Shown here: piece by piece, positions 10,501 to 61,600 of the stretch
How positions within the stretch are numbered: the first letter of the stretch is position 1
Layout: the number at the start of each line of letters is the position of its first letter
From: Vicugna vicugna
Taxonomy: Eukaryota
Length of the DNA: 64,000 nucleotides
Reading direction: 5' to 3'
Assembly (NCBI GenBank): GCA_013265495.1
Contig: MU058213.1
Span: 496,001 to 560,000, forward strand
Notes under the pieces: model-generated
Seen by the model: the letters and a program-made list of their open reading frames with translations, nothing else
Told to the model about the DNA's origin: nothing
The model's database searches: none
Position numbers and translations under genes: made by a program

Positions 10501-12807
10501 TGTTACATAGCATTGCTAGAGAACAGGGTTCTGCATACCCACGGATGTAAAAAGGGAGTGGAGAAAGAGAAGAGACATCCATCCCAGTGATGGGTTCTTT
10601 TCAGTGTGCCACCTGTGCTGTGCTCTTATGATGGAAGGTGGCAGGCGAGGGTCTGAGGGAGAATCAGATTTACTTTCACTATATGCTCAAGTTTACTGGT
10701 CACCACTTTTGCATATTGAATGAGTTCAACAGTGTATCTAAAGAAAACTTTTAAAGTGTTGAGTTTGAATCTACATTTAACATTAACCCTACGATTGAAT
10801 GTTACAGTCTCTGTGCCCTGTTTGTGCCATGTCTTTGATTCCTGAGATCTTTTAAATTCCAGTTTGAGGAATGTTCATAAAGTGGGGAGAGAGAACGACA
10901 ATCTGCTCAATGCAATTTTCTGAAATTCTTTCCCCCTCCTTCCCGTGGCCCCCTTCCTCTCCCTGTGTCCTACTGTCCTCCAGTCCAGTGCCTCCCTTCC
11001 CCAGGACAGCACATTAAATGTGACAGGCTCTTAGTCAGTGTATACAAATATATATTCATTTGAAGATGGGGAAATTGGTAAGGCTGAGAAAGAGTATTTC
11101 AGAATGATGGAAAAACTCTGGTCTAAAGTCCAGGAAGAGATGAAACTGAGGAACAGTGATGCCGTTCACCTTTTGTTCACTGCATAAAACTCAATTTGAT
11201 CTCGGCATGATTTCTGTTAGACCCAGCCTAGTTTATTTTAGAACTTTGTGTATAGTTCAGTGCTTACTAACTCAGTGTATTAAGACAAATCTTGCAAGAG
11301 GAAGAATGAGTCATAACGATACTTCCTTTGGGAGGGAAAGAGAAAGAAAATCCTCAGTCTGTACATTATATACTTGGAATGGATTCAGCATTTTGATTGA
11401 TGGTTAAGCACTGATAAGCTTTCCCTGCAAGCCACCTCATATCATATTTGGTTTTGTCCACAGTATAACTGGTGGAAGGATCTTTTAGGTTAACCAGCAG
11501 AGATAAGGAGTTCTATAACTTTATTACCCTGAGAGACTTATGTCATTTCTATTTTAAGATTTTTTTGAGTTTGCAACAACTTTTAGAAAAGCTTGAACAT
11601 TTCCTAGTCTACCCAGTCTATTAAACAAACAAACCAAAAAGAAGACTGAAAAACATTTGGTGGTAAGAAACTGGGTATGCTAAAGGGTGTGGCTGGTGTG
11701 GCATTTATCTAAGCACAGAATGGATTCTTCTCTGACCTCACCTTGTATCTCTGATGCTGCAACTCCACCGAGAAGAATAAAAAGAGATGAGGTGGGCTAT
11801 GACTGGGAGGCGGTTTGACTGCTTGGAGGTAGAAAAGGAAGTGGAGGTATTATTCACATGGGAGCCACAAAGTCTTTCAGTAGAGTCTTGAAAGATTGAA
11901 GTGCTATGAGTAACCTCTGAAGTATTTCTCTTAATAGTCACAAAAATGACTTGGCTGCTTTCTACTTTAAGGTTGCCCTCATTAACCTGCTTCCAATTAA
12001 ATCTATTCTTTGTTGTGGCCCTAACAAGTTTTTTCTGGACTACCCTCAGACTTCAGACTTTATTTTCTTTCCTTGTTCTTTTGAGATCTGTAGATCCCAA
12101 AATAAATCAACGTGACATCAGTAGCAATGGCAGGAAAGACAGGGCTACTTAGCTAATCTCATACCTGTTGAGGGTTAGTAAGTTTCCAGGGAACTTTTAC
12201 ACAGAATAGTCAACCACTGTTTTCCCAAACTTATGTGTGCAGAGCAACTACGTCACTCAGATCTATGTCCACATCTGGTCAATCATAGCATCCTAAGAAC
12301 TCCACAAAAATCATTAGTGTACTGCCTTTTAGCTTCATTGTATAGAAAGGCAGTGAACAGAATAGAAGGATAGATTTAGCATCCAGTTTATTTCCTTTAA
12401 AAAAGTATTGTTACTGCAAAAGTAATACGCATTATATACAACTAAAATAAAATGGTTTTCATTTTTTAGATGGTAAATACTGTATGCATAGTGCTTTGAA
12501 TGCAGTTAACATTAAGAACATTTTCTGGTTATAATTAGTGTTACCTAGAATCATAAGCTCATGAAAGGGAAATAGGACTCCTAAACGCCCTTGCAGTTGA
12601 GGATTGGCTGCACATTATCCTTGACAGATATTCACACTCAGCTTGTGCTTTAGCAATGCCAGATAACTTTCTTTACTCCCACCTTCTCCATTGAAGAAAA
12701 TGTTCCTCAAACCAACAGAGATGAAACTAAAGGCTGACATTAAATAGGAGAGCATTTAGTTGCTTTAAATGTTAAAATCTCCAGGTAGAGAGAACTTTTT
12801 TTTTTTT

Positions 12808-13037
12808 CATCATATCATTCCATTTATGTGAAACTTCCGGAACAGGCAAATCCATCCAGACAGAAAGTAGTCTGGGGGTGCGAGGGGCTGGGGGGTACTG
12901 CTAACAGATGTGGGGTCTCCTTTTGGGGTGACTCACAACAGTGTGAATGTACTAAATAACCCTGAATGGTACACTTGCCAGTGGTCAAAATGGTGAATTT
13001 CACATTATGCGATTTTATCTCGATAAAAAAATTTTTT
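12808..13037 (+). mobile_element. Old L1MB-like 3' end carried inside the 3' part of the FAM50A retrocopy
   Basis: ATTCCATTTATGTGAAACTTCCGGAACAGGCAAATCCATCCAGACAGAAAGTAG...TGTGAATGTACTAA...GGTGAATTTCACATTATGCGATTTTATCTCGATAAAAAA resembles the reverse complement of the L1MB-like copies at 825-1124 and 57395-57700. Confidence 0.8.
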
Positions 13038-13210
13038 TCAATGAAACAGTGCAGGTGCTCCAACTGACATGGACGTTTCTTTATCATAAAAGAAAAAAGC
13101 AGTAATGACAGTGCCGGGGCAGCAGATGATTGGCCCATCCTGTCTCAGAGAGAGGGCCAGGTGCCCAGAGTCCTGGAGCGTGGGGAAAGGGGGACCGTGC
13201 ACCTCCACCT

Positions 13211-14227
13211 TCACCGGATCGTGTACTTGTCCCACTTCTTCTCAGGGTCGTAGGGCTCCCAGCGGCTGGCGGGGAAAATGTGCTTGTTCTTCTCATACCA
13301 GCTCCTCAGCACCACCTTGCCTGCGTGCGACTCATCCTTCTCCACTGTGGCGTCACTGAGCAGCCGCACATCATCGTGAACATCGAAGTTAAAGAGAGGC
13401 CCACTCTTTCCTCGTGCCTTGGTGACAATGAAGTCGTAAAAGCTGTGGTGGTGGGATATGATTAGGTCCTCCTTGATGTACATGAGCTGCTCCACTCCTG
13501 CTGACCTGAGCTCACTGAAGTCTTTGCGCAGGATCTCCAGTGCCTTCTGCAGGAACTGCTGCATTGTGTTGCCCTTTTTCATCTTGACTGTTCGCCGGTG
13601 TCCAGAGCCATCCCAGTAACTGAACGTGATTTCAATCTCCTCGCTCTTGATCTTCTCCTGCTTGGCTTCCCACTCCTGCCGGAGCTCTTCCCGGAGCCGA
13701 TTCTCCTCCTCCTCCCGGTCTCGGTCAGGCAGGAAGCTGGTGTCCACATCTGGATTCTTCCCCAGTTTCCTCTTCTTTGTGGTGACCTCTTCCCTTTCCA
13801 GCTCCTCCTCATACATAACCACCTCTTCCTCCTCCTCGCCTGCCTCCTCTTCTTCCTCCAGTGTAAAGGACAGGCTGGAGATCTTCCGCTTGGCCTCCTT
13901 CTTGCGCTCCTCTCGCAGTTTCTTCAGCTTCAGCTGCAGCTCCTTCGACTGCTCCTTCTTGGCCAGCTGCTTCTCCCACTCCTTCACCAGTGCCTGCTGC
14001 TTCGCCTTCATGTCATTCAGGGTCACCAGACCCACAGTGCTGGACTTGAGCTCTGCCTCCACGGCGTCATAGTGTGCAGAGAACTTCTTGTCAATGTTGG
14101 ATTTCATGATGTTCTCCTCGGCGATCCTCTGCTTCATTTGCTCCATCTGCTCGCGCTGCTTCTCCCGCTTCTTCATCAGGTGCATGGCGCGGCCCTCCTC
14201 GCTCGCTGCACCCTTGTACTGAGCCAT
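13211..14227 (-). CDS. FAM50A: FAM50A/XAP5-like protein, 338 aa, single exon (retrocopy ORF)
   Basis: [24 protein letters not shown]...[17 protein letters not shown]...[14 protein letters not shown]...[21 protein letters not shown] is recognisably FAM50A; no stops or frameshifts; Kozak GCCGCCATGG. Expression cannot be seen from sequence. Confidence 0.88.
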
Positions 14228-14280
14228 GGCGGCGGCGGCGACAGCGAAGGCGACAACGGCCCGGCCGAATCTCAGGAGCC

Positions 14281-14300
14281 GCGGCGGCGGCGGCGGCGGC
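14281..14300 (-). repeat. (GCC)n tract in the CpG-rich 5' UTR of the retrocopy
   Basis: GCGGCGGCGGCGGCGGCGGC on +; a second GGC run at 14228-14240 abuts the start codon. Confidence 0.9.
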
Positions 14301-14571
14301 CGTGCAGTCAGCTCGAGAGAACTTATTTAAAAATTGTTTCCAGATTAATTCTGAAACCAGGCCCAAACAAAAAAGAAAAAAAAGAATGTTGATTTGAAAT
14401 TTTTTAACCAAAGCAAATTGAAGCAGATACTAAGTTTTGGATGGTGAACCACATTCAATTCAAAAGACTAGTGGATATATTTATCTAGAGGAAATATTTT
14501 GATCCTAACTACTATTATCTAATATATATCAACATTGAAATGCTTTTATTTTTTAAAGATAAACATATATA

Positions 14572-14680
14572 GGCGGGAGGGTATAGGTCAGTGGTAGAGT
14601 ACGTGCTTGGCGTGCATGAGGTCCTGGGTCCAATCCCCAGTACCTCCGTTAAAAAAAAATAAGTTTAAAAAATAAATAAA
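14572..14680 (+). mobile_element. tRNA-derived SINE (camelid Vic-1-like)
   Basis: GGGAGGGTATAGGTCAGTGGTAGAG (A box)...GGGTCCAATCCC (B box), A-rich tail, flanked by ATAAACAT(A/G)TA repeats; four related copies in the window. Confidence 0.85.
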
Positions 14681-14722
14681 TAAACATGTAATCACTGAAT
14701 TTTCTTTAGCGTGGAAGGATAA

Positions 14723-15147
14723 TGAGACTACCAGTCAGTCAATATCTGAAACAAAAAAAAGACAAAGCTGAGCTTAATACCTACTTTAATAAGAGAGAGC
14801 TATGCTGGCTAGGCACCTTCTCTGAGCAGAGGAGACCAATTTCTTATACAGAGTTTTTGGGAAGAATGGAATTCTGGGACTGGCAAACTTTCTGAGGCCA
14901 TAGTGACCTCATCTGCAGAAGCATGATTATTTGAGTCTGTTGATTGGTTGGCTGGCACTCAGAGGAGTGTTTACCAGAGTGAGTCTCTTCCTCATTGGTG
15001 GACCTTCAGAAGTGAGAGGCTTATGGTGATCGATTGCCTTGCAAAGGCAAATCGTTGATTTTTGTTGCTATTGTTGTTGACTAATACTTGTTACTGTGGC
15101 TACAGAAAAATCAATCTTTTCTATGTTTGTGGGAACTTTAATTCTCA
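14723..15147 (-). mobile_element. Putative solo ERV LTR
   Basis: TGAGA...TCTCA inverted termini; minus-strand order CCAAT (14994-14998, 14943-14947), TATAAGAA (14841-14848), ATTAAA (14785-14790), then a T-rich stretch. No clear TSD; family not recognised. Confidence 0.55.
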
Positions 15148-15194
15148 ATGTCAAATACGTATAATTACTTGTATAAAGCAAGCATATACTTAAA

Positions 15195-15875
15195 ATATTT
15201 TTGAGGTATAACTTAAAGGAAGAACATTTTAAGTGGACAGCTCAATAAGTTTCTGCGTATGTGTATACTTGGGTAACTATCACCCAGTTCAGGATATAGT
15301 GTATTTTCATTACCCTAGAATGTTGTCTAATACCCTCACCTAGCTATTCAGTACCCCTCTTAGCTATTCTGATTTCCAACCCCATGGACTTGTTTTGACT
15401 GTTCTTGAATTTCATGTGTGTGGAAGCATGTAGTATGTATTATTTTATGTCTAGCTTTTTATATTCCTTGCAGCATAATGCACGTGAGATTCATTCATGT
15501 TTTGCATATATAGTTGTTCTTTAATACTAGGTAGTATTCTGTTTTATGACTCTTCCTCAATTCATTTGTATATTCTCTTGGAAATGGACATTTGGGTCAT
15601 TTTCAGTTTGGAGGTATTATGAGTAAAGCTGCAGTGGACATTTTTGTACGTCTTATTAACACAAACACTATTTCTCTTGGTTATATGGCTAGAAGTGAAA
15701 TTGCTGCATCATTGTGGTATGGGTATGTTTAGTTTTGGTAGATGCTACCAAATAGTTTCCCAAAGTGGTTGAATCAATTTGTACTCCATTAGCAAATTAT
15801 GAGTTTCAGTTGCTCCACATCCTTGTCAACACTTGGTATTGCCACTCTTTTTTATTTTAGCCATGCCAGTAGGTA
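15195..15875 (-). mobile_element. Old L1 (L1M-type) 3' fragment
   Basis: GAGATTCATTCATGTT...GGACATTTGGG...CAAAGTGGTTG...TTGCTCCACATCCTTGTCAACACTTGGTATT are typical antisense L1M motifs. Confidence 0.75.
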
Positions 15876-16204
15876 TACGTATTTTTATTTTTAAAAAGGC
15901 AAATTTGAAGGAAAAAAGCCTGTGCCATTTCAGCAACTTAACATGAGAAACTTAAAAATACAGCGTTAGCCGGTTTAATCAAGTATTAACTTTCCTATTA
16001 ATTCTTAGCCTAATTTATTCATTTATTTAAAAATAAGCCTTGATTTATTTCTTAAACAGCTTCTTAACTTAGATTTGATCTAGGAAGAAACATCCTAAGC
16101 AAAGCTACTGTCACTGTAAAGTTAAGACGTTAGTGTTTCAATAACTGTGAATGAATGACTCCATGTTAACTTAAGTGACTTTCAGTTTACCCTTAGCCTT
16201 GAAA

Positions 16205-19150
16205 TTAATTATATTTGCTATTTTTTAGTTCTTGGCATGTGCCATGATCTGTTCTCTGTTGAGGATGCAGTAGTGAACAAAACAAAGTCCCTGACTGAAT
16301 ACAGTTTAGATTTTAGTGACAAAATATAGATAATGAATCAGTAAATATATAGCATGTCAGATAATAATATAGAGGGAAATATAGGATAAGAAAATAGAGA
16401 TTGCCTAGTGCAATAGTTTGGGGGGCCTGTGGGATATTTTATATATAGTGGACAGGGAAGTCCTTTCTAATAGTTGACATTTAAGCACAGACCTTAAAGA
16501 AGAGAGAGAACAGGTCATTTAGCTGTTATAGGGATGAGTTTTCCAGGTAGAAGAAACATCAAGTGTAGAAGCCCTCAGGTGAGAGTGTGCCTCGTTTGTC
16601 AGAGGAAGAGCAAGGTCACTTAATGTTGCTGAGGTCTTGTGAGCAAAGTGGTGAATGGTTGGAAATGAGTTGGGGCTTGAGGGGGATCATGTAGGGTCTT
16701 GTGGACCATTGTAAGGCCATCTGGCTTTTATTCATATTGAGATAAGATGCCATTAAAAGATTGTGAGTAGCAGAATTAATGGAATCTGGCTGGTTCACAC
16801 ACAAACTTGTATACACATGTTCATGGACACTATTTGTAATAGTCAAGAACTGTCTTTCACCATCTGAATGGTTAGACTGCAAAAAATACATACCATGGAA
16901 TCCAGTTTAAAAAGTGAACTGTTGATACACGGCAACTTGGATGAATCTTTACATATTTATGCTTAGTGATAACAGCCAATCCCTAAGGTTACATATGATG
17001 CTATGCATACGGCACTTTTTAAAATGACTTAATTTTAGAAAAGGGGGGCAGATCAGTTGTTTGCCAGGGGTTAGAGAGGGACATGAATGTGGTTGTAAAA
17101 GGACAACATGAATCTTTGTGTTGTTGCAACTGTTCAGTTTCTTGATTATGGTGGTGGATACACAAATCTAAAAGGTAATAAAGTTGTATGGAACATACTA
17201 CATACATGTATACACAAATATGAGAACAAGTAAAACTGGGGAAATCAGATTAAGATCAGTGGACTATGTCAATGTCAACATGCTCATTGTGATATACTGT
17301 AGTTTTACAAAATGTTACTGTCAGGGGAAACTGGACAGCATGTTCAAGGAATCCCTCTGTGTTGTTTCTTCCAACTGCGTGAGAATCTCTAACTCTCTCA
17401 ATAAGAACTTCAGTTAAAAACAATAAGATAGCTCTGGTACCTTTGCAGCAGATAGACTGTAGACTGTATGGGCATTAGAGTGGGGGCAGGAGCCTGAGTT
17501 AGGAGGCAATTGCAATAACCCAGGAAAGAGATGATGATGACTTGGACCAGAGGGGAAGCAGTGGAGATGGTAAGACATGATGTTTTAAAGATAGAGCCAA
17601 ATGTTTGATGGATCAGATGTGGAGTGTGAGAGAACTCACAGTTAATTCCAAGAGTTGTAGACTGAGCAACTAAAAGAATGGAGTTGCTGTTAATTAAATG
17701 GTAAAAACATGGCAAGAGCAGGTGTGGGGGAGAAAATTAAGAGTGTTTTGTACATTCACTTTTGAGATATCTGTTATCCATCCAAGTAGAGATGTGACAG
17801 AGGTAGTTATTTTTAAGTCCAGAGTTTGGGAAAGAAGTCCAAATTGGAGCTGTAAATGCAAGAATTGTCAATGTATGAAATCACCTAGGGAGTGAGTATA
17901 GAAAGAGAAGCTGCCAAAGAACTAAGTCCTGGGGGGCACTCCAGCATTTAAAGGTAGGGAGAACGAGGAGGAACTAGCAGAGGAGAATAGGGTGGGGCAG
18001 CCAGAGAGAGAAAGGGGGACCAAGGGAAAAATCAGTGTCCAAGTGCCCATGGCCAAGTGAGAAAAGTTTTTTAGGATGAAAGAATTCATGTGTTGTCAAA
18101 TGCTGCTTCTCATAGGTCTTGTAAGACGAGAACTAAGAGGTGACAGTTAGATTTGGCACCAGGCAGGTCATTGCTGACAAGATCAGTTTGGATGGACTAA
18201 GTGCTGGGAATGAAAGCCAGGTTGGAGAAGGTTTAAAAGAATGAGAGGGAGAGGACTTGGGGTACTGAAAACAGACAGTTCTTTCAAAGAGTTTTGCTAT
18301 AAAGAGGAACCAAGAAGTAGCCTGGAGGAGGACATGAAGGGTCTGGAGGGGGATATGAAATCAAAGGAATGTTTGTTTTTAATTTGGGAGATACATTACA
18401 GTCTCTGTGCTGATGGGCATGGTCCCATAGAGAAAAGGCACAATTATTGGAGTGATCTTGAATAAATGAGCATGGGTGAGATCTGGTTACAGGTAATGTG
18501 ATTGGCTTTAGATAAGAATCTGGACAGCTTATCTATAAAAACAAGAGTGAAGGTAGAGTTCATGGGTACAAATTCAGGTCAGGTGATAGACCATAGCAAT
18601 GGGAGTGTAGATGTCCTTTTATGATTGCTTCTATATTCTCAGTGAAATATTAAGATAGTGTCTTCAGCTGAGAGTGACAGGTAAAAATATTAAAGATTTG
18701 AAGGAAAAGAAGAGGTAAAATAGCCCTGTATGATAGAGGGAGAGTGTGGGAGAGTGACTGGACTAGGGAAATGCAGTGGGAATGTTAGGCAGCACTCTTT
18801 GATGTTAGTGGTGACAAATATTAAATATGGCTTGTCAATTTGTGTGTTTTTCTCCTATTTTATCTGCCACCCTGGCAAATTTTATCTGAGGAGTAAGAAG
18901 AGTGTTTTAACCAGGATTGGGGTTTTGCTAGAGGAGGAGTTCCAGAGAGGGAAGATCAAAGAAATTGAGAGTTAGGGAGGGGTACAATTTTTGGTAATGA
19001 TTAGAACTAGGTTACAAGCATCCGGATGTAGAGTGGAGGTAGGGCGGAGCACTGGATCATCAGAAGAGAGAAAAAAGGCCAGGGAACTTGGAGACTAGGT
19101 GTTGGAAGGGTCAATTATGTGGATGTTGAAGTCACAGTGATTACTGGTGC
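16205..19150. mobile_element. Degenerate L2 interrupted by an L1M 3' fragment (about 16790-17415)
   Basis: Purine-rich L2-like motifs (GACATTTAAGCACAGACCTTAAAGAAG, GAGATGATGATGACTTGGACCAG, GTCAAATGCTGCT); the inner segment has L1M motifs (CAACTTGGATGAATCTT, GTGGACTATGTCAATGTC). Confidence 0.65.
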
Positions 19151-21651
19151 CAAATTAATGATCATCTCTTCCTCAGCAGTTTGACTATAAGTATTATAAG
19201 TCCTGGAGAGAAAATAAGTTAGGAGCAGTAATGGTGTAATATTTCTTTTAGATCATGGCAGATTATTTGCTCGTTTCACTTTTTAGAGTCAGCTCTTTGC
19301 AAAAGATGATACCAGATATAGCGTTAACAAAGACATGTGCTTTTGTTTAGCCTACAAATACATTTAAAGCCCACAGCCAGCATTTGTTTTATTTAGTAAT
19401 TTTTAATTGGTTTATTTATCTTGTTTAGCTAATTTGATATTGTTATGGGTTTGTTCAAAAATTGTTATATTAGAACAGTTCACAATATGGACCTCAAAAC
19501 AAACCATTATGAAAATATTAACCAGAACCTTTTTTTTAGACCTAGAAATATGGATGGCAAAGGACCATGTTCAGCTCTTCAGAAAAAATAGATATGGAAT
19601 TTAAAAAACATTATTAAATACTAACAAATTAACATGAGGTTTTATCTCCTTACAGCCAATCTGTGAACAAATCCTTTTGACTTTGCTTCTGAAATATACA
19701 GCATGTTTTTTTCCATTTGTCTCTATATATATGTACAACTCCAGGCAAAGCCACCATTGTTTCTCATCTAGATTGCTGCTGGTAGCAGATTCCTAGGCTG
19801 AGGGAGCTGCTAGACACCTTGAGATCTTGGCTCAGAAATCACCTTTCAGAACAGTCTGTCTGAACCACTTAGAGTAACTTTCCTGACCCTCATTTCCCCC
19901 ATGGCATTGTCCTGGGTTTACCTTTAGCATGTTTATTACTGTCTGTTCTTAACTTGGTTTTTTTTGTTCATTGTTTTTTGTCTATACGCCACCTTTAAAA
20001 TAAATTAGAGCAAGGAACTTGTCTGTCTTGTATACTGCTTATGCCTATTGTCTGGAACAAGTCAGTTCCTGGTACAGGAGATGTTCAAAAATACTTGTTG
20101 AATGAATAGTAAATATACTGGAAAACAAATTATCATCTGGGAAACTTGACACATTAAAAAAGTTTCATATCTGGTGGGTCAGGTTGGTTTTAGTACCCAG
20201 GGGTCCTAGGAGAAGCCAGTGAGGAAAAGATGCCTCACACATCTGAAGACTAAGACTTGGTGTCTTTAGAGAGGAGATTCATTTCTTTACTCAAATCTTC
20301 ACTAGAGCATGTCATTAATTTCAGAGATCTGATGACTGATTATCAGATTTTTTTTAATTTTGTTTTAACTGGGGAAGATTAGACAGCAGAGAACGCTGAG
20401 TAGCAAGCCCAAATGGTTTGACACTGAGGGAAGAAGAGATAAATAATGCAGATGCTGTAAAGTGCTAGCAGAAGTATCAAAGACTAATTATCAGTGCTTT
20501 TATAGTTGTGATAAGGGAAACGTGGTGCAAAAGAGACACTAGATACCTGGGGGAGTTAGAGGAAACTACCAAAGAGGGAAAGGGGAGACTGATATATGAT
20601 CCAATTAAATCAAATTTGGCTTAACTGTGTGCCACCAGGTACTGTACCTGGTGACGGCATCCCAGGAAGAAATGAGATCTAGGAATCTCTGCTCTTCAAG
20701 CATCTTACAGTGTCCAGCAAGAGAGACAGACGAAAGATGACCTAGTACAATGTCATTGTTGGTTTGACATGAGATAGGGGGTGTCTTTGGGAGTAGCTGG
20801 CCAGCCAGCCCTGGAATAGGGTTTCATGTGGTGGTCATCAGCTTAGCTTTTGCAGAGTTCAATCCACCAGAAGTTACCTAATTTCTTTAAAAGTGTCCCA
20901 GACTAACCACGCTCATAAAATACTGGTACATAAGTCAAAACATGAATGTATTAATTTACAGTAAGGAAAGCTAGATGAATAGCCAAGTTTTAATTAGAAG
21001 ACTACTTGATGAGCATGGAGAAGAATAAGGGGAGTTGAATTACTAAATGTTGATTACGTCAGGTATAAGCCATCTGATATTTCTTCATAGGAGGCATGTA
21101 ACTGCAGTGGGACCAGCCAGTCACATCTGTTGGTCAGGATATCATGCCTCCCTTATGTTTAATGAACACGGCCACATCTTGTTTGATGAACCCCATTTCT
21201 TTGTATCTGCATGCTTACTGCCTTCTTTCTCTGGTTGTGTTACCACCATTCTGTAGTCATTTGTTCTATCTACTTTGGGGGGAATCATTTTTCTTATCAT
21301 ATATATGTTGATAGTACCAGTTACACCCTTACATTTTGAAGATACCCATCTTTCCTAGGGGTGGGAATGGAGAGCAAGGAAGACTTCTGGGAATGTACGT
21401 ATGCATCTTAGCTAAGCCTTGGAAGAATATGTAGGGGTTTGGATGAGGACAGAGGTAGATAAGAAAGAGTGCATTAATTGCAGCGAGAAGGAACAGAATA
21501 AACAAAGGCATAGAGACCCAAAAGCTTGGGGTCTGTTTGGCCTATCGGCTGTGTGACGGTGAGCAGTTGGAGATCATATTAGAACGCTAGCTGGAACCCG
21601 GTTGTGAGCTGTGTATCTCGTGCTGAGGAATTTGGACTTTATCTTGTAGGT

Positions 21652-27066: not shown

Positions 27067-27192
27067 ATGGCACTACCGTTCCGGAAAGACTTAGAAAAAT
27101 ACAAGGACCTCGATGAAGACGAACTCCTTGGGAATCTGTCAGAAACAGAGCTGAAACAGCTGGAAACTGTTCTGGATGATCTTGACCCTGAG
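27067..27192 (+). CDS. TMOD3: Tropomodulin-3 coding exon 1
   Basis: ACCATGG start; MALPFRKDLEKYKDLDEDELLGNLSETELKQLETVLDDLDPE; donor GAG|GTAGGT. Confidence 0.97.
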
Positions 27193-32002: not shown

Positions 32003-32159
32003 AATGCCCTTCTGCCTGCAGGGTTCCGGCAGAAGAACCAGACGTCGAAGTCTGCCACAGGGCCATTTGATAGAGAACACCTCCTTTCGTATCTGGAGAA
32101 GGAAGCTTTGGAGCATAAGGACAGGGAAGACTATGTGCCCTACACTGGAGAAAAAAAAG
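32003..32159 (+). CDS. TMOD3: Tropomodulin-3 coding exon 2
   Basis: CAG|AAT; NALLPAGFRQKNQTSKSATGPFDREHLLSYLEKEALEHKDREDYVPYTGEKK; G|GTAAAC. Confidence 0.97.
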
Positions 32160-58622: not shown

Positions 58623-61600
58623 GTAAGTCATTATTTATAAGTCGCTATAAAACTGAATTTCTGAATTGTATCTCTAAGCTAATGCATTGGAGGAGCTTTT
58701 TTAAAAATAAATATTAACACAGGAAGATCACTTGGTCTTTGTTTGTAAAACCTGCACAGCCCTTTTCATACTGACTGAATTAGAGTTCAGTTCAGATGAG
58801 GCTGCAGTGATTAGGTGAGCAGGTAAGATCAGCTTCCTACGGCAAACGTGTTTCGCAGCTTTCAGTGAACCAGTTTTCTACAACACACATTATTAAACAA
58901 TGCTGCCTATAACAAATACTTTGTTCTCAGTTTCAAGTCACCTCTTGGAGCTATTAAAACAAAGATTTCAACATTACAGGAAAGTTTTGCCCTTTGATCA
59001 AACAGGCCTAGATAGAAATTCAATTTTACATGGGAAGATACAGAATAATTGTAGTTTTAACCCAAGTTTTCAAGTCAGTGTGATGTAAAGATTTGCTCTA
59101 CTTACTTGTTGCCCTGACCCCGCCATCCCTGGGCGGTGTGTCCCCTCGCTGCGCACATCTAGGTCAGCAATCTCCTTCCCTCGCTCCTGTTGAACTGCTG
59201 AGGCTTATGGATTCCATTAAAAACAACTTTTCCAGCCAAGGCTGAACTAAAGAATATGATGCTTATAATTTTGTTTCTACGTGTTTACAGAAATTGACTT
59301 TTAAGTTTGTGTTTATCATTGAAATAGTTTAAAAGATGCATTTAGACAAGAATTAAAATAAGACTTCTTAAAGGGAGTCACATTTTACTGTGAGGATACT
59401 GGGATTTGAGAGCCAGTGTAGGCCACTGAGAGCATGATTTAAGTGATACTTCAAAAACAGCATTCTTACTACTCTTCTAGAGATAGAGAGGAAATGAGAT
59501 TAGTTAGGACTTACTGGCAATTGACTCATCATGAAGTACTGAGGACATATATTAGTGGAGCAGGTTTGGGAAGAAACTGCCAAAGAATTGTTAATGGGGC
59601 CAGACTTATGAGTCTCATGGGGAGGACGCACTGAGGAACTGCTGGGGTGACAAGGGCACCGAGTGAGAAAGTCGGCAGGGGCTCTGCCCGTCTTCCTCTG
59701 CTGTGTTCCGTAGCCTCCCATCCATCCACCCTCAGCTTGATTTTTTTTTTTTAAGCCTTCCTTGCACTTTGACCTCTGTCTGTAGGTCAAGGTGGCAAGC
59801 CTAAAGACCATGTTTTCTTACAGTCAGTCTAGTATGTGGTAACTGAAAGGAATGTCAAAAAACAAGGCTTGAAACTTGCACCACATCTCTTGGGCGTATA
59901 ATCTTTCTTCCCCTTGCAAATGGGGCTGTATTAGAGCTTAGTGTTCTGATTCTGATAACGTCTTTCCCTCTCTCTTCTTGTTTTCTTAGTCTCAACTTTT
60001 CTTTGAAATAATCCTACGTATTCGCCATCTCTCCAGCTGAGACGTATCACAACTATAACAGCAAAGGTTATCTGGAGTACGTGCGATACTCAGTCGAACT
60101 TTGCCTCACGTTACTGTCTTCACACTACTTAGCTGCATAATCCATTTTCTACATCTTTTTTGTTTGTTCCATCTGTCCTGTCGATCTTGTTTATAATGTG
60201 CATTTTTTGTAACATGCATTGTAGTATTTGAAATGGTCTGCCAATAATATCCAAACACTACTGCAACTCAGAATTTTCTTGAAAATGCCCCACCCTAAAG
60301 AATTATGTCGCTTGCCTTTCAGATGTTTCTGTGTCGTTCGGAGATCTATATACATGAATTAAGTTTGTGTTTGAGGGCTCAGTTCTCCATTTGATTTTCT
60401 TCCCTTTTCAGTAAACACAGGAAACTGTTAGACCAAAATTAGGGTGCAGCTAGTTGGATACGTGTGAAAGTGCTCAAGGGAACTTGGTACTTCAGCCCTC
60501 CTGGTTTTTTCTTTCTAGCTAGCGTCCAGCCGTTGGCTTTTATGCACATCACTTGACTGGTCTCATCTCTCGAGGGCCAGTGATCAGAAGCCAGCAGTCA
60601 GAGCAGCATGGAAGCAGAATCTGTGGCCTGGCCAGAAGGCAGTGCCCCTGTTGGCTTTTCACTCCTCTGTTAAACAGCAAATTCAGGCTGAACAAAAGCA
60701 CTTGTCTTTCTACTTGCTTCCACAGAAGAGAGCACAGAAATTAATAAACCAACAAATATCAAAGCCAGATCCTTGTAACTATAAAAGATGAATTGGCTTT
60801 CCCCACCTGAAAAAGATGGCTGACCTCAGGACCATCCGGTAACCCCACTGTGGTGGGTGAGGAAGCCGGGGACCCTTTGTTGAACGCTTTCTGTATTCTC
60901 AGTCCTGCCCTAAGCAGCGGGTCATGCCTTTGCTTGTACAGCAGGGGGTTAAGATACCATTATTCTCCTGTTACAGAGGATGGGTTGAGGCTCAGAGGGG
61001 AACTTACTTGCCAGAGAGCACACTGCACACAGCGACAGAGCCATGGCTCAGTTTGTCACTGACGCTGGAAGCCGTGCTCTTTGTCCTAAGTAGGAGTTGG
61101 CCGCGGTGCCGGGGTGCCCTGACCTGGTGGCTCTCAGCGAATGCTCCCTGTAGCTGACGGGGAGATCTGACGCTGAAGCCCGGGCGGGCCCTGCCGCTGC
61201 TGCGCACTGCCCAGCGGGCCCGGGTCGCCAGGCCACGAGGAGGCTGAGGGTCCTCGGAGGTGCACCTTTGTTCACCCCGTTAGCTGAGCGAGGTGGCTGA
61301 CCACCTTGGGGCTGAAGCCGATAGTAGCCAGATGTGACATCACCACATTACCAAGGTCTAAGGTTTTCATTACTTTGTTGTTTATCAGAGCCCTGAACTG
61401 GGTCCCTTCAGAGGAGTTAAGAGACGGAAAATCTGGAGAGCAGTAGTAACAAATCACTTACCTATAAAAATGACAAGGCTATTTTTGGTGTGTTCTTTCT
61501 CAGACTAAGGAGATAATCAGAAGAGCATGCAAATACTTACTTTTTTAACACTTTCTAATCCCGCTGCCTGAATGTCATTCAAAATTTAACACAGTAAGTT

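Follow-up and report, generated by a model that had tools for sequence, protein, structure and literature searches.

A full-length FAM50A retrocopy antisense in the TMOD3 locus of Vicugna vicugna: probably a young processed pseudogene with a still open reading frame

The stretch of Vicugna vicugna DNA analyzed here (C1645:496001-560000 on contig MU058213.1; 64,000 nucleotides, hereafter the window) carries on its minus strand a full-length copy of the mRNA of the gene FAM50A. The copy spans 12788-14328 and is oriented antisense to the tropomodulin gene TMOD3. It is probably a young processed pseudogene, produced by LINE-1 (L1) machinery and decaying neutrally, whose frame would still be open because too little time has elapsed. 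The initial annotation had regarded it as a candidate young retrogene derived from the X chromosome. This part of the annotation is not borne out, since the substitution pattern is neutral, invariant residues are changed, the promoter of the parent was left behind and survival of the open reading frame (ORF) is expected at this age.

The structural elements named in the initial annotation are all present in the sequence. A single-exon ORF of 338 aa extends from 13211 to 14227 (minus strand, as all parts of the copy described in this paragraph), with a start-codon context, GCCGCCGCCATGG, that is inherited from the parent. The encoded protein matches the Pfam domain XAP5 with E=5e-55 and aligns along its entire length with human FAM50A; the latter is the only relative with solved structures (8c6j, 9fmd). 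Upstream of the ORF lies a 5' untranslated region (UTR) of 86 nt (14228-14313), identical to that of the parent apart from one extra GCC in a repeat. The 3' UTR of about 400 nt (12808-13210) originates from exon 13 of the parent and displays five substitutions, one of them common with the sister copy r2 described below, as well as two 1-nt deletions. It is followed by a poly(A) tail of 12 nt (12796-12807; T12 on the plus strand), which is absent from the parent DNA, where other sequence is found instead. A CATAAA motif at 12823-12828, 15 nt ahead of the tail, presumably acted as the poly(A) signal. The insertion is bordered by a 14-bp target-site duplication (TSD). Its 3' copy (12788-12801) reads GAGAGAACTTTTTT and merges with its last four bases into the poly(A) tail, while its 5' copy (14315-14328) reads GAGAGAACTTATTT; 13 of 14 positions agree and 10 bp are exact, and the empty site before insertion would read as a single AAATAAGTTCTCTC. 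A T-run precedes the 5' copy, forming an L1-endonuclease-like TT/AAAT site. Between the TSD and the first mRNA base stands a G (14314) that is absent from the parent. Such an extra G, derived from the cap, is a mark of full-length reverse transcription by L1, and the G at 14314 most plausibly represents the copied mRNA cap.

The 3' UTR of camelid FAM50A ends within an old interspersed repeat (12808-13050 in the window, L015:7680-7913 at the parent locus), which has matches of 69-86% genome-wide, was already part of the parent and shows CATAAA in place of AATAAA before the cleavage site. A 104-codon ORF overlaps the 3' UTR of the copy.

The parent gene was found on C8878, where FAM50A comprises 13 exons separated by GT-AG introns of 95-2155 nt and encodes 339 aa, in agreement with the multi-exon structure the initial annotation had ascribed to it. 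All 12 exon junctions are fused in the copy (at most one mismatch per 20 nt), its 5' end coincides with C/AGCTG of the parent, and both UTRs match the first and last exons. The copy is 99% identical to the parent, from which it departs by 7 substitutions over 1017 coding nt, whereas its identity to FAM50B of the same genome amounts to 75%; the proposed derivation from FAM50A rather than FAM50B thus stands. Moreover, the copy shares the camelid residue Q78 with the parent, and in a protein tree both group together with a support of 94/89 (a branch that is not starred). A DNA tree with FAM50B as outgroup left both inner branches open and is uninformative. The parent is situated directly after a GDI gene, and in human GDI1 and FAM50A are both located in Xq28 (PMC7378245; this and all further articles are cited from excerpts). 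On the basis of this neighbor the parent, on contigs that carry no chromosome names, is considered probably X-linked. A GDI-family copy that lacks introns, is split in two pieces and contains a stop (G000:C6135:2142442-2143747) is probably another processed pseudogene.

These features would be accounted for by the following course of events. In the germ line, L1 machinery would have picked up a capped, spliced and polyadenylated FAM50A mRNA from the X chromosome, copied it into DNA as far as its first base and placed it antisense in the long first intron of TMOD3. The copy would have arrived without the upstream promoter of the parent, undergone at least partial methylation and accumulated changes at the neutral rate ever since. 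With L1 processed pseudogenes it has in common the fused exons, the poly(A) tail, the TSD, the TT/AAAT-like site, the missing parental promoter and a neutral spectrum of changes; in contrast to them, it shows no disabling mutation yet, is full-length to the first base and possesses a CpG-island-like 5' end. As a pseudogene it would be ordinary, one of thousands, and of use as a presence/absence marker for camelid phylogeny.

The divergence from the parent is small. In addition to the coding substitutions, the 403 nt of the 3' UTR contain 5 changes, and the 83 nt of the 5' UTR are free of them; indels amount to a 3-nt coding deletion, the two 1-nt deletions in the 3' UTR and the extra GCC. Ten substitutions are private to the copy, of which the one at mRNA position 1477 probably occurred on the side of the parent, and two further ones are common with r2. 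The resulting private divergence is 0.60-0.67% (95% confidence interval (CI) 0.27-1.22%). Published rates of 7e-9 and 1.1e-8 per 5-year generation (PMC7331169, PMC7305198), equivalent to the 1.4e-9 or 2.2e-9 per year used here, would date the insertion to roughly 3-5 million years (My) ago, with a range of 1-9 My, an estimate that is biased upward due to the CpG richness of the copy. Scaled by the change that another sister copy, r3, has accumulated since the Camelus split, the age corresponds to 0.47 of that split (CI 0.11-1.49), which suggests that the insertion is probably younger than the separation from Old World camels. South American and Old World camelids are reported to have diverged 11-25 My ago (PMC13751797).

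Compared with the parent protein (whose numbering is used), the copy carries A11E, R84W, E102K, P259S and a deletion of K107, along with three silent changes, one of them common with r2. These five amino-acid differences are not mentioned in the initial annotation. The private coding changes therefore number four replacements and two silent ones, close to the 4.3:1.7 expected under neutrality in a model that includes transition and CpG bias (omega 0.79-0.81; P(<=4N)=0.55). Four or more replacements among six would occur with probabilities of 0.002, 0.017, 0.10 and 0.45 at omega values of 0.05, 0.1, 0.2 and 0.5, respectively, and the parent protein does not differ from Camelus FAM50A at any of 339 positions. 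A parent-like constraint on the copy is rejected by these figures, while weak constraint would still be compatible. A ratio of replacement to silent rates (dN/dS) significantly below 1 was not obtained from the 4N:2S changes, a comparison of low power.

The location of the changes points in the same direction. Conservation was assessed in an alignment of 130 homologues, a similarity-chosen set of 135 proteins minus the window copy, r2 and three Camelus entries of r3. Of the 130 sequences, all have P259 and E102, 129 have R84 and 122 have A11, and K or R occupies position 107 throughout. The Armfield syndrome variants E254G, D255G and D255N are located in the conserved KEDLI stretch (PMC7378245), which is followed by P259 at a distance of 4-5 residues from E254 and D255, and P259S may thus affect function. 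Since 78% of the alignment columns are conserved in at least 95% of the sequences, changes at fixed residues are the outcome expected of random mutation, whereas a copy under selection should be spared them. Private changes affect 4 of 138 CpG positions versus 5 of 1365 positions elsewhere, an 8-fold enrichment (p=0.006), and R84W also arose in r3. Both are as expected of methylated DNA, suggesting that the copy is methylated at least in part.

Under neutrality an open frame at this age is not surprising. In 20,000 simulations with 10 substitutions the frame remained intact in 74% when substitutions alone were considered, and in 34%, 16% and 7% when one, two or three random indels were added, assuming that 80% of indels shift the frame. 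The probability of ORF survival thus lies between 0.07 and 0.74 depending on the number of indels and does not fall below 5%. In addition, intactness loses weight because the locus was flagged for being intact and because therian genomes hold thousands of retrocopies (PMC4772013).

Several observations weigh against neutral decay. Six coding changes provide little power: an omega of 0.5 fits as well as 1 (P of 0.28 versus 0.32), and 0.2 is still allowed by the probability given above. With 78% of columns conserved, the changes at fixed residues merely equal the neutral expectation. The three indels other than the GCC all avoid a frameshift, one being in-frame in the coding sequence and two 1-nt deletions falling in the 3' UTR; the probability of this placement is about 0.1 at random, 0.07 for intactness and 0.007 at the indel density of the 3' UTR. 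This placement is the best point in favor of the retrogene proposed initially. Finally, all 56 CpG sites of the first 300 nt are undecayed, while 4 of the 82 further on have decayed, although this difference is not significant (p=0.15).

According to the retrogene proposal, the CpG-rich 5' end would serve as a promoter and a FAM50A-like protein would be made in spermatocytes or spermatids, where the X chromosome is silenced. The intact ORF with its Kozak context, indels that spare the frame, undecayed 5' CpGs and a parent gene beside GDI as in Xq28 fit this proposal, as does the report that CpG islands provide 35-52% of the promoters of novel retrocopies (PMC4772013); furthermore, r3 provides a precedent for selection acting on a camelid FAM50A copy. 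In opposition to this stand an omega of about 0.8 and three changes at near-invariant residues. Moreover, the FAM50B gene of this genome has an open frame, and its human counterpart is described as autosomal and highly expressed in testis (PMC3141237), so that the niche of a back-up copy would already be filled. Taken together, a young protein-coding retrogene appears unlikely. The exact protein of the copy is not contained in a collection of 15 billion proteins, whereas that of r2 is present and annotated in alpaca. However, this absence is uninformative, since FAM50B of this genome, a real gene, is likewise missing, as is r3. Relatives with more than 90% identity fall in a protein cluster of 284 members, of which 15 are listed.

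FAM50B itself, a therian autosomal retrogene, resembles the window copy in having FAM50A as parent, a single coding exon and an autosomal-type location. It differs in being old, conserved, highly expressed in testis, imprinted in human and non-intronic (PMC3141237), whereas the window copy is intronic, about 99% identical to the parent and displays no selection. In this genome FAM50B (L022:4233-5237, minus strand) shows an open frame with several changes in motifs that are conserved in FAM50A (such as AELK to AKLK, DGSG to DGCG, DFIV to DLIV). A faster evolution of camelid FAM50B, if true, would strengthen the case for a new back-up copy.

The 5' end of the copy deserves separate consideration, as it brought a CpG-island-like segment into the locus. 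The GC-rich upstream promoter of the parent was not copied, but the downstream half of its island was imported (13800-14314; 515 bp, GC content 0.60, observed/expected CpG ratio 0.76), with values of 0.62 and 0.96, respectively, in the 5'-most 315 bp. By comparison, the upstream flank (14329-14900) is AT-rich, with a GC content of 0.34 and 5 CpG. It harbors a high-copy repeat resembling a short interspersed element (14572-14660, plus strand), which we take to be of the camelid Vic-1 type. Inspection by eye of 14329-20500 revealed AT-rich DNA and old repeats only, and no donor of an upstream promoter.

An imported island of this kind raises the alternative that the copy acts as a regulatory element. 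It would be methylated in oocytes through transcription of the host gene and unmethylated in sperm, and thereby become a germline differentially methylated region (DMR) with a paternal antisense transcript and skewed TMOD3 expression, as known for PPP1R26P1 in human RB1. The copy exhibits the three features of imprinted retrogenes, namely a (probable) origin from the X chromosome, an intronic position and a 5' CpG island (PMC1796624), and among seven mouse retrogenes that combine these features, four are reported to be imprinted; however, the features are not sufficient, and this count covers expressed retrogenes (PMC3080381). Tmod3 mRNA is reported throughout mouse oocyte maturation (PMC4931587), and the absence of decay at the 56 CpG sites of the 5' end is as expected of an element that is unmethylated in sperm. 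On the other hand, this CpG signal is non-significant, and across the entire copy CpG sites have decayed in excess. Furthermore, a proven human germline DMR placed into mouse Rb1 gave no germline methylation (PMC4537222), and retrotransposed islands with low methylation in testis and high methylation in soma are reported as common without imprinting (PMC4509998). A regulatory role is thus accorded a small chance. There is a slim chance for the more specific notion of an emerging germline DMR, methylated on the maternal allele and active on the paternal one, which would constitute an imprint specific to the South American camelid lineage.

Mcts2, Nap1l5, U2af1-rs1, Inpp5f_v2 and the RB1/PPP1R26P1 DMR share the X-derived parent (putative for the window copy), the intronic position and the 5' CpG island with the window copy, which is far younger. 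Were the island differentially methylated, it would be among the youngest known births of an imprint. Because near-identical copies exist at other sites in the same genome, such a case could reveal directly what decides imprinting, be it X origin, transcription of the host gene in the oocyte or local sequence: r2 and r3 would serve as same-sequence controls elsewhere and Old World camels as the empty-site control.

An assembly artefact, or an insertion that is private or polymorphic instead of fixed, is very unlikely. Public sequencing runs were compared using 274 words sampled from 12000-14560. The best 14 DNA runs, from four organisms, contained 0.76-0.81 of the words, six RNA runs 0.05-0.28 and four runs 0.00. 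Expected shares are 0.386 for the flanks only, 0.425 for spliced parent mRNA only and 0.837 for a genome without the copy (flanks, parent, r2, r3 and FAM50B). The DNA values lie below that of a genome devoid of the copy, as an artefact or a private insertion would predict. However, contig assemblies that collapse near-identical paralogues would be expected to cap the values at the same level even if the copy were there. The shares are therefore non-discriminating, as the DNA runs fit both absence and collapsed paralogues and the RNA runs require parent mRNA only. Mis-joined reads of the parent or r2 are excluded by the TSD, the 5' G, the poly(A) tail, ten private substitutions whose spectrum reflects CpG decay and junctions distinct from those of r2, and a divergence of 0.6-0.7% implies an age beyond that of usual within-species polymorphism. 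Listings of the literature on FAM50A/FAM50B retrogenes, on camelid retrocopies and on FAM50A together with TMOD3, to the exclusion of retrocopy databases, contained no description of the window copy; among the entries listed, RetrogeneDB (PMC4069623) mentions alpaca.

The host gene was identified by its coding exons on the plus strand. The first (27067-27192) is located 12.7 kb from the copy, on the opposite strand, and the second (32003-32158) matches many mammalian tropomodulin-3 proteins at 100% identity and almost all tropomodulin-2 entries at 85-90%, with the exception of one dog entry labelled Tropomodulin 2 that matches at 100%. A second tropomodulin gene is situated 25-80 kb upstream. 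At C1645:490,974, 5.0 kb before the start of the window, a CpG island with a CAG/GTAAG donor is found, which is the probable TMOD3 promoter island and exon 1. The copy lies antisense, 17.8 kb past that donor and ahead of the first coding exon. Host gene, strand and position upstream of the first coding exon thus agree with the initial annotation, while its placement in intron 1 depends on the putative exon 1. TMOD3 presumably has an autosomal location.

Disruption of TMOD3 by premature polyadenylation was considered and rejected, as neither AATAAA nor ATTAAA occurs in the insert when it is read on the host strand. Two acceptor-like tracts end near 13801 and 13861. Between 14500 and 61000 the window contains no CpG island; a small CpG-rich patch at 61001-61300 (20 CpG in 300 bp, GC content 0.65) is located in the 3' part of TMOD3.

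Besides the window copy, the genome contains three single-exon relatives of FAM50A, all with open frames: r2 on C571 (99% identity), r3 on C6962 (89%) and FAM50B on C10751 (75%). The initial annotation had postulated a second, lineage-specific retroposition. Its independent and lineage-restricted nature is upheld, but with at least three FAM50A-derived copies besides FAM50B it cannot be called the second. A practical consequence is that camelid FAM50A reads and annotations mis-map among four loci.

The copy r2 (L016:5627-7108; G000:C571:281626-283106) is flanked by the TSD AAGAAAAAATTGTA and, judged by eye, embedded in L1-like DNA. With four private changes, including one replacement (K116E), it is very young, and its protein is exactly that of alpaca XP_031535059.2, annotated in RefSeq as 'protein FAM50A'. 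Parent, mechanism and open frame are the same as for the window copy; r2 differs in being younger and shorter at the 5' end, in its TSD and in a poly(A) site 3 nt earlier. Window copy and r2 share two bases that deviate from the parent (parent mRNA positions 1070 and 1197), one of which falls at a CpG, and r3 has the base of the parent at 1070. The shared bases may reflect recurrent CpG decay, an older allele of the parent or introgression of an X-linked allele. Descent of r2 from the window copy, or the reverse, is disfavored, and independent insertions are preferred because 5' ends, poly(A) sites and TSDs differ.

The oldest of the three copies is r3 (L019:6196-7238; G000:C6962:5679195-5680237), which displays an open frame of 332 aa. 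Annotated orthologues exist in C. dromedarius and C. ferus; at the level of annotation they have a 7-residue deletion in common with r3 and end at 299-300 aa. Of 300 residues compared, 15 differ between r3 and its Camelus orthologue. Relative to the parent, 24 replacement and 17 silent changes are found in codons 1-150, whereas codons 151-339 have 8 replacement and 33 silent ones (Fisher p=0.0006). The omega of the C-terminal part is 0.20-0.27 (P 0.0001-0.003), with half of the silent changes, or only those towards A/T, assigned to r3. When the C-terminal silent changes are polarized by FAM50B, 9 fall to r3 and 12 to the parent, with 7 remaining ambiguous. From this pattern r3 looks like a once-selected copy that has since drifted or died in Camelus, and it would exemplify both the co-option of a camelid FAM50A copy and the persistence of an open frame after its function is lost. 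While r3 has parent, mechanism and open frame in common with the window copy, it is old, shared with Camelus and constrained only in its C-terminal XAP5 domain, and as a candidate for a genuine camelid retrogene it is superior to the window copy.

An old high-copy repeat at L019:5795-6155, about 70% identical to many copies (2940 candidates), ends approximately 40 bp before r3. It is presumably a sense-oriented long terminal repeat (LTR) of the MaLR type, and this LTR-like element is a possible promoter donor for r3. Outside the camelids, 'FAM50A-like' proteins with scattered changes are found in fruit bat, pika and elephant seal (P0036, P0043 and P0059), which suggests that FAM50A retrocopies may arise repeatedly in mammals.

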